Source: Thermoproteota archaeon (GTDB taxonomy: Archaea; Thermoproteota; Thermoprotei; Thermofilales; B9-G17). From it: a DNA stretch of 64,000 bases. Of this stretch, positions 1,528 through 7,319 are shown piece by piece; the first letter of the stretch is position 1, and each line of letters starts with the position of its first letter. The translations under genes and the position numbers were made by a program. The notes beneath the pieces are model-generated. The model ran no database searches. It was not told the origin of the DNA and saw nothing but the letters and a program-made list of their open reading frames with translations. Where the stretch lies: positions 224,001 through 288,000 of the forward strand of contig JAPDJW010000002.1 of NCBI GenBank assembly GCA_029258885.1, read 5' to 3'.

Positions 1528-4500
1528 TTGCCAGAGGTTATGCTCATGGTCATACAGCAAGAGGAGGCTCTCGAAAGAGAGTCTGATGAGGTAAGCCTCA
1601 AGAAGTATGAGCAGCAGTATGTGGAGATGATTGACTGGGAGGTTAGAGAGAATGCAAACACCAATAGGTCGTATGGAAATTTCCTCGGATACATACTTGA
1701 TAAAACAATGAAGAAACCCGAGGTACTGGCCAGCTACCTCCCTCCGGATGCAGTTGAATATCACTTTAAAGGTTGGCTTCACATTCACAAGCTACCTCAT
1801 TCACTTTATATACCCTATTGTGCTGGCTGGAGCATAGAGAAGATACTGAGAATGGGACTAAAGACTCCAACTATAATTTCGAGGCCGGCTAGACACCTGG
1901 ATACAGCCGTAAGTCACCTAATAAACTTCTTCTTCCTAACGGCACAGGAGTGGACAGGAGCAGTAGCAGTATCAGCGTTCGACCTCTTCATGGCTCCATT
2001 TGTAAGGAAGGATAACCTCAATTATAAGCAAGTTAAACAGTGTCTACAGAAAATGCTTTTCGAACTAAACTATCCCAGCAGAATGGGTTATCAAAGCCCC
2101 TTCACTAACATAACATTGGTTATTGATACGAGCGATTCTATGCTTAACGGCTCAGCTATAACGGATGGTAAAGTTTCTGGCAAATTAGGCGATTACGTAG
2201 ATGAAGCCATATTGATAGATAACGCGTTGCTAGACTTGTATTCTGAGGGGGATGCCTTAGGGCAGCCATTTAGCGTATCGGGCGATACCTATACGATCAT
2301 AGTTGAGAACGGCGAGTATAAGGTTGTAAAGATAGGCGAATACGTAGACTCCCTGTTCAGAAGATATAAGGATAGGGCTGTGAAGCGGCACGAGTACGAG
2401 GTGCTATCTCTGAATGGATTAGATATTAGGACGTTTGGATTTGATGAACATAAGCAGGTATTAATGCATAAGGTGAAGTACGTCGTCAGGCATAGGACGC
2501 ATAAAATATTAAAGATTACATGTGAGGGAGGCTTCGAGGTTAAGGTCACTCCTACTCATTCGGTTTTCACGTATAGGGGCGGAAAGATAGTAGCTGTAAG
2601 GGCCTCAGATCTCGGGGAGGGAGACTACATACTGGGCATAGGTCGGCTTCCCAGCGAGAATATAAGGCTGGAAATTAACGTACCGAAGCTATTAGCTTTA
2701 CATGGCCTAATGGAAAACGTCTTTCTCTCACTCGATGACGATGGGAGAATAAGGCTAAAGGAGGTTCAGGATAAGATTGATGAAATGAATTTAGAGGAAT
2801 GCTACGTGTATCTCGGCGGATCTAAACACAAAGTACCGTGCATCGTAGATGTGGACGAGGAGCTAGCCTATTTCCTAGGCTTTTTCCTATCGGGTGGGCG
2901 CATAGAGGGCAGGGTATTTGATGTCAGTAGAAGAGCTGGCAGCGTTGAACTTGTCTTAAGGCTTAACATAAAACCCGGAGAGGATGTTGTAGGCAGAATA
3001 ATTGGGATAATTAGAAGGAAATTCAATATTGAACCCAAGGTAAAAGTGGATAAGCTAAGAAACTTAATCGAAGTAAGGATTTGCAGTAGGCTATTAGCTA
3101 GAATATTTACTTTACTCCTTGGTTCTCGCGGAAGGACTATTCCCTCCGCTATCTATAGGGCACCATATACGGTTAAAGTAGCCCTTCTTGCCGGGTATTT
3201 AGATGGAGATAGGACAGCGGAGATAAGGATCGATAGAGTAAAATGGGATAGTTTCAGCATAGCATTCCACTCAACAGAGGCTGGTCTTGCTTATAGCATA
3301 GCCTACCTTCTCCTACAGATGGGAATACCCATTAAGCTCTATAGATATTATCCCGGAGGATATATGTCTTCACGTGAATACTACTATGTCATAGCTCCAG
3401 CAAGTAGATTGCCTTCGGAAATATTGGAGTATAGCTACAAGCTGAGTGAGCTCAAAAAACATGCTCTAAAGACGGAGCTTACGGAGAATGCTTGGAGACG
3501 AGCCGTAGAGGTTATTGCAATGTGTGATGGAGGTATAAGCGAAGCTAAGCCGAGTGGAAGGGATGGTGATCTAGTATTCATGCGCATTAGGAAGATAGAG
3601 GAGATTGAGGGCGATTTCACAGTATATGATTTATCGACTGAAGAGGGGGCATTCATAGCTAACAACTTCATAGTACATAACACGTTTCCTATACCAACTA
3701 TAATGTTAACTAAGAAATTCGATTGGAATGGAAGAAGATGGGGTGAACTAACGGACAAAATCTTCACCGCACTAGCAAGAAAGGGTACAGCCTACCTCTT
3801 AAACGGAAATGCAACGAACGTAGAGGCATTATACTCCATGTGCTGTAGGCTTACAATAAATATAAGCAGGCTAAATAACAATAACTTTAGCTTAAAACTT
3901 ATTCCTACAGTGAAGCCTGGGGGAGATGGCAACTATACGTCCGTGCTGAAGGAGAATAGGCAGGCCTTCGGTATATGGGCTCTCCCCGACGCTACGGGAA
4001 GCATAGGGGTAGTAACCATAAACATGCCTAGGATAGCAATATTGAGTAAGGGAGAATGGGATAAATTCGAGGAACTGCTGGAGAAACTCTTATTAAAGGC
4101 TAGAAAGGTGCTACAGACCTGGAGGAGCAGATACAATTTAAACCTTAGTAGAGGATTCATGCCCCTCACCAAGACATACCTCGGCCATTTCATGAATCAC
4201 TTCAACACATTCGGAATAATAGGCTTACCTGAAGCAGCAGCAAACTTTATGAGGGATCCGGAGCTATGGATCGAGTGCAACAAGAAGAGGATTGATGAAG
4301 CCGTAGCAATAATGAGGAGAATGGTATCCTACGTTAGACGTAAAGCTAAAGAGTTTGAGCAGATGGACGGCGTCCTATATAACGTTGAGGAAATACCTGG
4401 CGAAAGCACGGGATACAGGCTGGCGTCAATAGACGCGGCAAGATTTAAGGAGGAGATTAGACGCGGAGAGGTATTCATGCCCATGTACGATGGAGTACCA

Positions 4501-4905
4501 TTCTACAGCAACTCGGTCATACCCTACTATGCGGACGTACCCATATACAGGAGAGCGGTATGGGAGGGCACGGTTCAGGGAGAGTTCACAGGCGGAGTAA
4601 TGATGCACTTATTCCTTAACGAAAGCCCAGATCCAAGGGCTCTAAAGAACCTAATATACAGGATTGTACACGATACAAGGGTAGTATACTTCAGCATAAC
4701 GCCAACATTAGCTGTCTGTAGGAAGTGTGGATGGAAAGCAGTGGGAGTATATGACAAATGTCCCAGTTGCGGCAACGAGAACGTAGACCACTGGAGTAGG
4801 ATCGTTGGATACTACAGGCCAGTTAGAAACTGGAACATAGGTAAGAAGGCAGAGTTTAAACTTAGGGTGCATTATGGAATTAACTCTATAGTTTCCGCCT
4901 CCTAA
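1528..4905 (+). CDS. nrdD: Anaerobic (class III) ribonucleoside-triphosphate reductase, intein-containing; probable start ATG 1540
   Basis: HIHKL, YCAGWS, QSPFTNIT, YSMCCRL (thiyl Cys), C-terminal CxxC...CxxC zinc site and SRIVGYYRP glycyl-radical loop. No N-terminal ATP cone is apparent. Confidence 0.95.
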   Translation: MPEVMLMVIQQEEALERESDEVSLKKYEQQYVEMIDWEVRENANTNRSYGNFLGYILDKTMKKPEVLASYLPPDAVEYHFKGWLHIHKLPHSLYIPYCAGWSIEKILRMGLKTPTIISRPARHLDTAVSHLINFFFLTAQEWTGAVAVSAFDLFMAPFVRKDNLNYKQVKQCLQKMLFELNYPSRMGYQSPFTNITLVIDTSDSMLNGSAITDGKVSGKLGDYVDEAILIDNALLDLYSEGDALGQPFSVSGDTYTIIVENGEYKVVKIGEYVDSLFRRYKDRAVKRHEYEVLSLNGLDIRTFGFDEHKQVLMHKVKYVVRHRTHKILKITCEGGFEVKVTPTHSVFTYRGGKIVAVRASDLGEGDYILGIGRLPSENIRLEINVPKLLALHGLMENVFLSLDDDGRIRLKEVQDKIDEMNLEECYVYLGGSKHKVPCIVDVDEELAYFLGFFLSGGRIEGRVFDVSRRAGSVELVLRLNIKPGEDVVGRIIGIIRRKFNIEPKVKVDKLRNLIEVRICSRLLARIFTLLLGSRGRTIPSAIYRAPYTVKVALLAGYLDGDRTAEIRIDRVKWDSFSIAFHSTEAGLAYSIAYLLLQMGIPIKLYRYYPGGYMSSREYYYVIAPASRLPSEILEYSYKLSELKKHALKTELTENAWRRAVEVIAMCDGGISEAKPSGRDGDLVFMRIRKIEEIEGDFTVYDLSTEEGAFIANNFIVHNTFPIPTIMLTKKFDWNGRRWGELTDKIFTALARKGTAYLLNGNATNVEALYSMCCRLTINISRLNNNNFSLKLIPTVKPGGDGNYTSVLKENRQAFGIWALPDATGSIGVVTINMPRIAILSKGEWDKFEELLEKLLLKARKVLQTWRSRYNLNLSRGFMPLTKTYLGHFMNHFNTFGIIGLPEAAANFMRDPELWIECNKKRIDEAVAIMRRMVSYVRRKAKEFEQMDGVLYNVEEIPGESTGYRLASIDAARFKEEIRRGEVFMPMYDGVPFYSNSVIPYYADVPIYRRAVWEGTVQGEFTGGVMMHLFLNESPDPRALKNLIYRIVHDTRVVYFSITPTLAVCRKCGWKAVGVYDKCPSCGNENVDHWSRIVGYYRPVRNWNIGKKAEFKLRVHYGINSIVSAS
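2272..3681 (+). mobile_element. Intein (470 aa) with LAGLIDADG-type endonuclease domain in NrdD
   Basis: Interrupts GQPF|TFPIPT. Begins SVSGDT, has block B VKVTPTHSVF, ends VYDLSTEEGAFIANNFIVHN followed by +1 Thr. EN motifs LAYFLGFFLSGG and LLAGYLDGDR. Confidence 0.93.
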
Positions 4906-5046: not shown

Positions 5047-5940
5047 TTGGTGTTAAGATTGTATATAGCTTTAGATGCACTACTTAAATTCTATACACCG
5101 CTTTTGCTCGGATACATATACGGCAGAGTATTCAGAGTAGATGAGAAATTTACGATGAGGCTATCAAGGCTGGTACTCTATATACTACTGCCGCTCCTAT
5201 TGTTTGATTCAATATATAGCAAGGGTAGGAAGGGAGATTTCAGCGAACTTGGGCTAATAACGATAGTAGCTATAGCGGGGGTAGCAATTTCCCTAGCTGT
5301 ATCAATAGCGGTATTCCGTAATTCATTCGATAAGGTAATGTGCACCTTTTATCCTAATTCAGGCTACCTCCCAATACCCATAGCAATAAGCATGTGGGGA
5401 AAGGATGCAGTATCCTACGTAGGCTTCTTCATAATAGGAAGTAATGTGACATCAAACATTCTAATACCGCTATTATCAGCCTTAGATCTAAAGAGGGGGT
5501 TGAGAAGGCTAAAATACTATCCTCCAATATACGCTGCTCTCTCGGCGCTAGCTCTCGCAGTTCTCGGAGTAGAGGTGCCAACAACAATTCTTGACGTACT
5601 AGAACCTATCGGAGAGACAGCTCCAATAATAGCGTTAATAGTGCTGGGGATAGAGACAACATACCTGAAGGAATTCGAATATGATGGCCTAAAAGTATAT
5701 CTAGTTAGACTAATGCTAGCGCCAGTTATGGTCACATTAGCAATGTTCCTCAACCTAACCGAGCTAGCGGTAAAGGTAGTTGAACTAGAAAGCATAATGC
5801 CGCCAGCCGTGACAAACATAATATTATCAAACGAATACAACATAAATCCGAGGAAAGTAGCGGGAATAGTACTTACATCAACACTTATATCAACATTCAT
5901 AGTAATACCGATGGCAATATTTAGATTTCTAGCATGCTAA
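5047..5940 (+). CDS. AEC (auxin efflux carrier / malate permease) family transporter
   Basis: About 10 hydrophobic segments; motifs FYPNSGYLPIPIA and MPPAVTNIILSNEY. Confidence 0.85.
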   Translation: MVLRLYIALDALLKFYTPLLLGYIYGRVFRVDEKFTMRLSRLVLYILLPLLLFDSIYSKGRKGDFSELGLITIVAIAGVAISLAVSIAVFRNSFDKVMCTFYPNSGYLPIPIAISMWGKDAVSYVGFFIIGSNVTSNILIPLLSALDLKRGLRRLKYYPPIYAALSALALAVLGVEVPTTILDVLEPIGETAPIIALIVLGIETTYLKEFEYDGLKVYLVRLMLAPVMVTLAMFLNLTELAVKVVELESIMPPAVTNIILSNEYNINPRKVAGIVLTSTLISTFIVIPMAIFRFLAC

Positions 5941-5972
5941 AACTATTTATAATAGTCTACCGTATAGGAACC

Positions 5973-6025
5973 TAGTGATGATGCGAGCAGACTCTGACAA
6001 ATGATGTATACCAAACCATCTGAAG
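5973..6025 (+). ncRNA. Box C/D methylation-guide sRNA
   Basis: C GTGATGA 5975-5981; 12-nt guide TGCGAGCAGACT; D' CTGA 5994-5997; C' ATGATGT 6001-6007; 12-nt guide ATACCAAACCAT; D CTGA 6020-6023. Intergenic, canonical archaeal spacing. Confidence 0.9.
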
Positions 6026-6144
6026 CTTTCTGCCCCCTGATATTTTTCACTAAGCTTCTAATACTGTTTATGAAACGCGTATAATTCCTTAATACTTTAA
6101 AATAAGTATTACCCCTATGCAATAGTATTAGATTAACTATTAAA

Positions 6145-6158
6145 AGAAAAGTTTATAT
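6145..6158 (+). promoter_or_regulatory. BRE-TATA promoter for the downstream structured RNA
   Basis: AGAAAAG-TTTATAT at 6145-6158, about 30 nt upstream of a GC-rich hairpin, with no plus-strand ORF downstream. Confidence 0.65.
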
Positions 6159-6182
6159 GTATCTTTGACAAAACATATATTG

Positions 6183-6500
6183 AATGAAGCAGGCAACCAG
6201 GATAGCCTCGGTTGCCTGCAGAGGGAGAAGTAATGATGATCCCCGTAGGGTCGAGGGCCCAAACATCATTGAATTCATAGTTTGAAAGTACCGATGTCCT
6301 TCTTACGTCCTCCGGTAAAATGCGGAGGGAATTAATATCCCCCGGGGGAGCGGGCTCAACCATTATTCGGGGTTCACGGATATTTTCTGCCATAAACGGC
6401 TTCAACTGCTATCAGTACTCAGAAATTACATTGCTTACTACGTCTTCTCTATTTTTTTCAGTGATGGGGTAGACCTCGACCCTACGGGTTCTCTGAATTC
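6183..6500 (+). ncRNA. Structured ncRNA with box C/D and a canonical bulge-helix-bulge motif enclosing a 210-nt insert
   Basis: Hairpin 6189-6219; box C ATGATGA 6233-6239; 15-bp perfect stem 6242-6256/6474-6488; central 4-bp helix GCCC 6257-6260/GGGT 6467-6470; 3-nt bulges AAA 6261-6263 and AGA 6471-6473; 10-bp inner stem 6264-6273/6457-6466; box D CTGA 6493-6496. Confidence 0.75.
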
Positions 6501-7319
6501 CGCTACTTTTGCTATCTCTATTAGATCATCCATGCTTAGCTCATATACTCTCTTACTAAGTATCCCTTCTATCTCATGGTAATTTACCTTTACACTAAGG
6601 TAATGCTTTAGAACTTTTGATAGTAGTTTATTCCTATAGGAGAATAGCATTCTAGTTATTTCAAATAGCTTTTCTTCTTGATCCTGAGTTAAGTTGTATT
6701 TACGCTTTACTTTAAGCTCTACAATGGCTGATTCTACTTTAGGTGGGGGTATGAAGCTTGAGGTAGGCAATATCCTTATAATCTTAGGCTCTGAGTAGTA
6801 TTGAACAAGAACAGTGAGCCTCCCATAATTTCTCGTTGAGGGCTGTGCTATCATTCTATATGCAAATTCCTTTTGAAGCGAGAGTACGGCAAGTCTAAAG
6901 CTACATTCCTTCAAAAGTTTAACAAGTATTTTGGAGGATATGTGGTAGGGAATATTTGAAACCACCTTATCGATGGGAGGGATTTTCAACCTAAGAAAAT
7001 CCCCACATATTATCTCCACGTTGCCATATTGCTTAAGTACTTCCTCAGAGGCTTTAACGAGTTTCTTATCTATTTCGATTGCGATAACTCTTTTAGCCTT
7101 CTCAGCGAGGAAGCTCGTTAATATGCCTAAGCCGCTGCCTATCTCAAGAACTACATCGTCTTTCTTAATCCTAGAAACCATTATACGTATGGCAGATGGA
7201 TCCACTATAAAGTTCTGACTAAGCCTCTTCCTAGGCCTTATGCCGTATTTCCTCATTAGGAACAGTGTTTTTCTAACTAGATATTCCCTAGTAACTGTGT
7301 CAAGCTTCATTCTTACCAA
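6438..7319 (-). CDS. rsmA: 16S rRNA adenine dimethyltransferase RsmA/KsgA (Dim1)
   Basis: KRLSQNFIVD, VLEIGSGLG (SAM binding), VVSNIPYHISS, QKEFAYRM, SFIPPPKVES. Confidence 0.95.
   Translation of the reverse strand: MVRMKLDTVTREYLVRKTLFLMRKYGIRPRKRLSQNFIVDPSAIRIMVSRIKKDDVVLEIGSGLGILTSFLAEKAKRVIAIEIDKKLVKASEEVLKQYGNVEIICGDFLRLKIPPIDKVVSNIPYHISSKILVKLLKECSFRLAVLSLQKEFAYRMIAQPSTRNYGRLTVLVQYYSEPKIIRILPTSSFIPPPKVESAIVELKVKRKYNLTQDQEEKLFEITRMLFSYRNKLLSKVLKHYLSVKVNYHEIEGILSKRVYELSMDDLIEIAKVAEFREPVGSRSTPSLKKIEKT

Follow-up and report, generated by a model that had tools for sequence, protein, structure and literature searches.

Cleavage at bulge-helix-bulge (BHB) motifs followed by RtcB ligation is known for transfer RNAs (tRNAs), ribosomal RNAs (rRNAs), their introns and, in one genus, for the permuted RNA of the signal recognition particle (SRP). 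The permuted SRP RNA gene of Thermoproteus tenax and T. uzoniensis is circularized through a BHB, and a C/D small RNA (sRNA) gene is adjacent to it (Plagens et al. 2015, PMC4731332). Neither of two surveys of archaeal circular RNAs, which cover rRNA intermediates, introns, C/D sRNAs, RNase P RNA, 5S RNA and omega RNAs, includes a gene that stands alone, is bracketed by a BHB and encodes an RNA of no known family (PMC3326292, PMC12558985). A limited literature search, which is no proof of absence, produced no published description of such a gene. The locus described here is very probably a gene of this kind, stand-alone and driven by its own promoter, with a circular non-coding RNA of ~210 nucleotides (nt), the ring, as its main stable and functional product. 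It is located on the plus strand of a 64,000-nt stretch of DNA (the window) of a Thermoproteota archaeon from the order Thermofilales (GenBank assembly GCA_029258885.1, contig JAPDJW010000002.1, positions 224,001 to 288,000). Coordinates refer to the window unless a genome or contig is named.

A circular RNA joined at a BHB motif

The RNA data are contigs assembled from four metatranscriptome runs (X19, X20, X22 and X23) of one marine-sediment sample, aligned over positions 5950-6750. The contigs cover 6263-6472(74) only and are 239, 239 and 242 nt long, with one more of 184 nt. The first three lengths equal that of the ring (209 or 212 nt in the respective variants) plus k-1 (30), as a cyclic k-mer graph yields, and the contigs of runs X20 and X23 contain a back-joint at which 6472 is followed by 6263, that is, the sequence goes back by 210 nt (word depth at the joint, 81 and 45 in the two runs); hence the RNA product is circular. 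The run X19 contig has loose ends, CAGTGATGGGGTAG before 6263 and ATCATTGAATTCAT after 6474, that represent the same junction, and in the run X22 contig, the junction letters GGTAG precede 6263. The observed junction falls exactly at the cut sites set by the BHB rule, after the second nucleotide of each bulge, with a 2-nt ambiguity because AC occurs both at 6263-64 and at 6473-74. The product of the locus is a 209/210-nt circular RNA.

In sequence, the RNA contigs correspond to the strain represented by the metagenome contig L024, whose nine substitutions and one-base deletion in the T run they share. Run X23 contains a third ring haplotype, with bases of the window type at 6322, 6323 and 6363 and of the L024 type elsewhere; its three single-base insertions are found at low depth and may be errors. 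Positions 5950-6262 and 6475-6750 have no contig cover, and the data are uninformative on the stability of the flanks, on exon ligation and on expression of the adjacent C/D sRNA and rsmA genes.

A preliminary description of this locus, made from the DNA letters alone, had predicted cuts after 6262 and 6472 and a 210-nt circular product, which is what the 6472 to 6263 junction in the RNA contigs reveals. Its coordinates for the individual features and the assignment of a promoter-driven RNA to the plus strand are likewise borne out by direct reading and folding. Termination at the run of seven T (6452-6458), ahead of the 3' arm, had been considered as well; this run is not a transcription stop because it is contained in the ring.

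The processing motif and the proposed pathway

Both 3-nt bulges are located 3' of the central helix of 4 base pairs (bp), which is the tRNA-intron (hBHBh') geometry of the position 37/38 type, and this geometry holds on the plus strand only. The helices flanking the BHB consist of 15 bp on the outer and 10 bp on the inner side. The fold of the entire element has a minimum free energy of -119.9 kcal/mol (z = -5.45), with 0 of 100 shuffles being equally good. In a scan for BHB motifs by structure alone, covering the entire 2.1-Mb genome on both strands, the element (15+4+10 bp) ranks second, next to the 16S processing stem (17+4+10 bp), and the third-ranked match (14+6 bp) is antisense within a coding sequence. 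The motif is not a chance match because only the 16S stem and the element stand far above the background of the scan, and the canonical, plus-strand-only BHB of the preliminary description is confirmed, with its 4-bp helix and two 3-nt bulges. The third-ranked candidate (C2:53481-53912), which also lacks a promoter, was rejected. A canonical 23S processing stem was not picked up in this structure-only scan of the genome.

The 16S processing stem of this genome (L007:1450-1495 and 3003-3037; G000:C3:67627-69213) is a textbook BHB with 17 bp, a GCGA/UCGC helix, bulges AAU and UAA, and 10 bp. In shape, the element is close to a copy of this stem. The similarity to pre-rRNA processing stems that had been proposed at the outset thus stands with respect to geometry but not with respect to the layout of a C box and a D box, given that the cell's own 16S stem has neither. 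A tRNA gene is located ~130 nt upstream of the rRNA promoter region (L007).

The genome encodes two tRNA_int_endo proteins (114.6 and 68.3 bits; G000:C3:96770-97003 and C2:473160-473408) as well as RtcB (604 bits; C1:488272-489579). The presence of two tRNA_int_endo proteins points to an endonuclease of the crenarchaeal heterotetramer type, with a broad tolerance of BHB motifs. In the pathway that we propose, RNA polymerase would start near 6183, ~25 nt past the TATA box as judged from the spacing, and the leader and the trailer pair into the 15-bp stem that presents the canonical BHB, as both sequence and covariation show. The heterotetramer-type tRNA-splicing endonuclease, to which the motif and the genes point, would then cut after 6262 and 6472, the positions given by the RNA junction. 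Finally, RtcB would be the ligase that closes the excised segment into the ring seen in the RNA contigs. The leader hairpin and the stem would serve folding and processing.

The features of the locus are collected in Table 1. The fold predicted for the ring is branched, with one end closed by the helix P1 and a 7-nt junction loop, and carries a conserved self-complementary block, CCCCCGGGGG.

Table 1. Features of the circular RNA gene and of the two adjacent genes, in window coordinates
Feature	Position	Strand	Comment
Box C/D sRNA gene	5971-6025	+	Weak Rfam C/D matches; conserved upstream neighbor of the circular RNA gene
Promoter: B recognition element (BRE)/TATA	6145-6158	+	AGAAAAGTTTATAT; over 6145-6159, AGAAAAG TTTATATG; read directly
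5' leader ('5' exon')	6183-6262	+	Begins with the conserved AUGAAGC; includes the hairpin, the motifs GAGGG and AUGAUCC, and the 5' strand of both the outer and the central helix
5' hairpin	6189-6219	+	10 bp + 3 bp, single bulged C
AUGAUGA ('box C' of the preliminary description)	6233-6239	+	Conservation limited to AUGAYCC
Outer processing stem, 5' strand	6242-6256	+	Partner 6474-6488; 15 bp, all Watson-Crick
BHB, 5' half	6257-6263	+	Central helix strand GCCC 6257-6260, bulge AAA 6261-6263; cut after 6262
Excised segment (circular RNA)	6263-6472	+	210 nt; 209 nt in the strain detected as RNA
Inner stem P1, 5' strand	6264-6273	+	10 bp with 6457-6466
Helix P2, 5' strand AGUACCGAU	6287-6295	+	Predicted pairing with AUCAGUACU, 6411-6419
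Hairpin CCUCCG-loop-CGGAGG	6309-6328	+	Predicted fold
Palindrome UCCCCCGGGGGA	6338-6349	+	Sole long sequence block common to 7 of 7 rings (k-mer comparison)
Small hairpin AGCGG/CCAUU	6349-6364	+	Predicted; supported by two strain substitutions
Inner stem P1, 3' strand	6457-6466	+	Partner 6264-6273
BHB, 3' half	6467-6473	+	Central helix strand GGGU 6467-6470, bulge AGA 6471-6473; cut after 6472
Outer processing stem, 3' strand	6474-6488	+	Partner 6242-6256
3' trailer with CUGA (6493-6496)	6489-6500	+	Not conserved in homologs
rsmA/ksgA (16S dimethyladenosine transferase)	6438-7319	-	Convergent; Pfam RrnaAD E = 2e-53, residues 30-271 of 293

Homologs and covariation

Homologs of the element were detected, using blastn and a covariance model of the leader (R1), in all five searched genomes of one genus that belongs to another family of Thermofilales (the sister family). 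These genomes, titled 'Thermofilaceae archaeon' or 'Thermoprotei archaeon' at NCBI, come from Guaymas-type vents, and matching metagenome contigs were found as well. The homologs have in common the promoter, the 5' end RAUGAAGC, the hairpin, the GAGGG and AUGAYCC motifs, the stem and the BHB. The leader (6183-6262) shows 71% identity to that of the other family, over the leader part only. Within the promoter, AAAGTTTATAT is invariant in all homologs, at a constant spacing to the conserved RAUGAAGC start. Nearly the same promoter as in the RNA gene precedes a leader and repeats (AATTAATTTAAAAATCTCTTAAAGAGAATAGAAAG) of clustered regularly interspaced short palindromic repeats (CRISPR) at L013:1640-1770 (G005:C17); the AAAGTTTATATA box serves these archaea as a strong promoter of general use.

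The preliminary description had named conservation and compensatory changes in relatives as a check on the proposed structure, and both are found in the BHB helices and in the 5' hairpin. Across six sequences, 100% of the cells of the 5' hairpin are paired and both sides have changed in 4 of the 10 pairs; the covariation score is reached by 0 of 500 shuffles, and slid controls drop to 20-50% paired. The seventh sequence (G002) has a further compensated version of this hairpin, GGAAGACCC/GGGUCUUCC. The outer stem, which is 11 bp long in the sister family, shows compensatory changes from GAGG/CCUC to CGGA/UCCG and GGGG/CCCC, and in G002, CCCU/AGGG replaces the CCCC/GGGG of the central helix, with the 4-bp length kept. 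The 3' bulge remains 3 nt long in the sister family (UUA, AAU). The strand UCAGUGACGGC has three alternative partners there, and the inner side of the BHB is relaxed.

The rings predicted for the sister family are 251-264 nt long (324 nt in G002), with a predicted junction of GGGGUU to AUCAGUGA. Across the families, the ring keeps only short blocks, namely, CCCCCGGGGG, UCAGUGA and a GUAC/GUAC helix, the latter occupying the P2-equivalent place in the other family (GUAC.../...GUAC). In the other family, the pair that flanks the palindrome is A..U (UACCCCCGGGGGUA) instead of U..A, so that the symmetry is kept.

With the R1 model, no homolog was found in the sister genus of the element's own family, in other families of the order, in five selected genomes or elsewhere in the class (120 genomes), where the matches outside the two lineages are promoter-like noise only. 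This result is worded as 'not found' rather than 'absent' because several of the genomes are incomplete and R1 leans on lineage-specific sequence. The neighborhood of rsmA in the sister genus (G001) contains no BHB cassette, and the structure-only BHB scan of a complete Thermofilum-like genome (G004) recovered a permuted tRNA but no such cassette. This permuted gene (G004:C1:1295726-1295831, minus strand; L116-L117) encodes an initiator-type tRNA(CAU) and has a canonical BHB in the T-loop and a promoter-like A/T box of its own. Permuted tRNAs have reportedly been observed also in Thermofilum pendens. Among the matches that were discarded, one blastn match in G034 is due to chance, those in G001 and G005 comprise the promoter only, and three GC-rich bacterial matches from a pattern scan of metagenomes are chance matches as well.

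The genomic neighborhood

The C/D sRNA gene immediately precedes the element in both families: orthologous sRNAs with the same two guides are located directly upstream of it in three sister-family genomes (L010:2014-2068, minus strand; L030:1765-1819, minus strand; L011:1449-1503, plus strand). The guides, GCGAGCAGA and CCAAACCG, match the organism's own 23S rRNA at sites 63 nt apart (G000:C3 near 72005 and 72068). The protein-coding neighbors are nrdD, a transporter, rsmA and mgtC in the window, and a polyprenyl synthase, an amino-acid kinase, pfkB and UPF0047 in the sister family. The module of two RNAs, the C/D sRNA and the ring gene, is alone conserved in synteny. The last ~20 codons of rsmA (6438-6500), beyond the Pfam domain, are non-conserved and run antisense to the stem's 3' arm; the RNA gene seems to set the stop of rsmA. 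An intein that includes a LAGLIDADG endonuclease domain interrupts the nrdD gene (1528-4905, plus strand; anaerobic ribonucleotide reductase; Pfam NRDD, Intein_splicing, LAGLIDADG_3).

Such a distribution would also fit a selfish or mobile BHB element that travels with the C/D sRNA gene and persists through harmless splicing, with neither of its products having a cellular role. The occurrence is patchy (two lineages in 120 genomes, and not found in the sister genus of the own family), the synteny is limited to the sRNA and ring module, the carriers co-occur in the same vent metagenomes, and C/D sRNA genes have been noted beside rearranged RNA genes (PMC4731332). However, the element is present in a single copy, has a strong, conserved promoter of its own and is not associated with repeats or an integrase; furthermore, the adjacent C/D sRNA is an ordinary 23S guide, and the ring is subject to purifying selection (see below). 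We regard a selfish origin as very improbable.

The ring does not match known RNA families

The Rfam searches, run on unrotated sequence with local matches that would catch the halves of a permuted RNA, gave no match within the element at the gathering score (whole window) or at E ≤ 10 (5900-6600 and five homologous loci), with only the upstream C/D sRNA being recognized. The models for small-subunit, large-subunit and 5S rRNA have no match in the insert, ARAGORN detects no tRNA in 5800-6800, and the stem under the BHB has 15 bp, compared with the 5-bp anticodon stem of a tRNA. The genome, which is 99.9% complete, carries elsewhere a canonical RNase P RNA (C3:46453-46758, 153 bits), a full-length SRP RNA (C2:339952-340271, 150 bits) and complete 16S and 5S rRNA genes; because these genes sit elsewhere, the ring is none of these four RNAs. 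The preliminary description, which had recognized no 16S, 23S, 5S, tRNA or SRP RNA in the insert, is in agreement with these results. A loose likeness to the P4 element of RNase P/MRP RNA that it had mentioned does not hold up: the P4-like strings are not kept in the sister family, there is no Rfam match at E ≤ 10, and the canonical RNase P RNA is encoded elsewhere.

A known RNA (SRP, RNase P, tRNA or part of an rRNA) could escape linear models if it were present as a permuted copy, for which there are precedents in BHB-bracketed permuted genes, such as the initiator tRNA gene in G004 and the Thermoproteus SRP RNA (PMC4731332), and a stem that copies the geometry of the 16S stem could, in principle, be left over from a decayed rRNA operon or a misjoin. 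The lack of local Rfam matches at E ≤ 10 and the full-length SRP, RNase P, 16S and 5S genes elsewhere speak against a permuted copy. With respect to decay or a misjoin, the independently assembled metagenome contig L024 shows the same arrangement (98.6% identity over 5.9 kb), the element is also present in DNA runs, and the RNA ring has the exact genomic length. An assembly artifact in which an rRNA was lost, as had initially been considered, is excluded because the L024 contig and the DNA runs agree on the arrangement. The probability that the ring is a disguised known RNA or an operon remnant is extremely low.

The possibility that the insert encodes a protein was rejected: its only open reading frame (50 amino acids, 6320-6472) has lost the ATG start in L024 and shows no conservation in the other family. 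Comparison of the ring with its own genome using blastn-short produced only chance-level matches as candidate antisense targets (the best of 16 nt, E = 0.1). A scan of the rings and precursors for kink-turns (K-turns) yielded candidates at non-equivalent positions in the two families.

The strings AUGAUGA and CUGA that flank the stem in this genome had been interpreted as boxes C and D of an L7Ae-binding flank. A K-turn formed by these strings would contain a mismatch in stem I, and between the boxes and the long stem there is a 2x3 loop; there is no guide between them because a perfect hairpin fills that space. The homologs keep AUGAYCC only, with no CUGA or GA 3' of the stem. Given the absence of box D in the homologs, the hairpin in the guide space and the lack of both boxes in the cell's own 16S stem, the C/D (L7Ae) interpretation of the flank is not supported.

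Is the ring functional?

Selection on the ring was assessed in a close pair of sister-family sequences, G015 and L023, that are 8.7% apart. Their rings differ by 4.5%, the upstream spacers by 8.1%, the leaders by 7.1% and the third codon positions of the adjacent pfkB gene by 22.5%, that is, ~5 times the rate of the ring. Judging by these divergences, the sister-family ring is under clear purifying selection. The ring is probably functional because it evolves ~5 times slower than the neighboring third codon positions, and it is taken to be the functional product given this selection and the lack of detectable antisense targets.

Between the strain of the window and L024, the changes are all in loops, or keep a pair as G-U, or improve a helix. 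Thus, in the hairpin 6349-6364, C.A becomes U-A through C6351>U and G.U becomes G-C through U6363>C, and C6323>U keeps a pair of the hairpin 6309-6328 as G-U. In 9 of the 12 substitutions in the transcribed region (6184-6520), the change is C>T on the plus strand, a bias that may have its origin in heavy transcription of the gene, with deamination on the non-template strand.

Several observations weigh against a functional, BHB-derived ring. In the comparison of the window strain with L024, the ring is the most variable stretch, with 10 differences in 210 nt (4.8%, against 1.36% overall across the 5.9-kb contig), which by itself would suggest a lack of constraint, and between the two families, it is less alignable than the flanks. 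Instead of a clean bulge, the 5' cut site of the sister family has a bulge of 3 nt that faces 2 extra nt, or a three-way junction. The gene family is found in only two lineages among the 120 genomes of the class. The RNA evidence consists of assembled contigs from one environmental sample, which cannot show the start, the strand, the precursor or the ligated flanks.

The variability of the ring between close strains and the better conservation of the flanks between families, with the single-stranded motifs AUGAAGC, GAGGG and AUGAYCC kept, favor an alternative in which the locus is a host-less intron. The functional RNA would then be the ligated flank of ~108 nt, that is, the 5' hairpin followed by a second hairpin of 15 bp with a GCCCAAA cap, and perhaps a K-turn, and the ring would be a stable excised intron similar to the circular rRNA introns of Desulfurococcus or Pyrobaculum; the AUGAUGA and CUGA strings around the stem in this genome would fit such a flank. 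However, the sister-family ring evolves not only ~5 times slower than third codon positions but also slower than the leader, CUGA (box D) is missing in the sister family, the outer stem covaries freely, as a processing helix would, and the ring is the only RNA species recovered. Accordingly, we consider a host-less intron unlikely, although less so than a selfish element.

As for what a functional ring might do, the leading possibility, at somewhat better than even odds, is a structured RNA that binds proteins or serves as a scaffold, with closure providing stability against heat and exonucleases. A broader and distinctly more tentative interpretation is that Thermoproteota carry dedicated 'circularization cassettes', small rRNA-like processing stems with promoters of their own, in which the enzymes of tRNA splicing would generate functional circular RNAs of new families. 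Under this scenario, the ring would be the RNA of a trans-acting ribonucleoprotein, the freed GGGG strand would re-pair inside the ring as a switch, CCCCCGGGGG would mediate dimerization or protein binding, and the linkage to the C/D sRNA would hint at ribosome biogenesis.

The RtcB- and BHB-dependent machinery here very probably makes an abundant circular RNA from a dedicated gene that is conserved across two families of uncultured vent archaea. The range of substrates of the archaeal splicing enzymes would be wider accordingly, and the locus is a genuine prokaryotic gene for a circular non-coding RNA, with transcript evidence. A search rule based on structure alone (a long stem, a 4-bp helix and two 3-nt bulges) separates real cassettes from the whole-genome background, and the cassette could serve as a natural design for the expression of circular RNA in archaea.

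Comparison with known systems

Like the processing stems of pre-16S and pre-23S rRNA, the element combines a long stem and a canonical BHB with excision and circularization; unlike pre-rRNA, it contains no rRNA and is located outside the rRNA operon, and the ring itself seems to accumulate, unlike an intermediate destined for reopening. A BHB-defined circle is shared also with stable circular introns, such as the 23S intron of Desulfurococcus mobilis and the tRNA-Trp intron with its C/D sRNA, and with the metazoan tRNA intronic circular RNAs (tricRNAs), and some of these introns carry functional RNA. In contrast to the circular introns, there is no host gene here, the 'exons' being the ~108 nt of non-coding leader and trailer, and the ring has no C/D, H/ACA or homing-endonuclease content. 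The permuted tRNA genes of Thermofilum (G004), in the same archaeal order, and those of Cyanidioschyzon similarly rely on BHB cleavage and ligation via a circle, but their circles are reopened into tRNA, whereas ARAGORN and Rfam find nothing tRNA-like in the ring.

The Thermoproteus SRP RNA gene resembles the present one in being stand-alone, with a TATA promoter, a leader-trailer BHB, a circular product and an adjacent C/D sRNA gene; the endonuclease there is heterotetrameric. In that gene, the cargo is known and its permutation requires circularization, whereas the ring described here matches no family and a normal SRP RNA gene is located elsewhere in the genome; the leader is ~80 nt long and includes a conserved hairpin, compared with 23 nt in the Thermoproteus SRP gene. 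Among these systems, the locus stands as a dedicated cassette that produces a BHB-dependent circular RNA with a novel cargo, and this mode of biogenesis is well supported.

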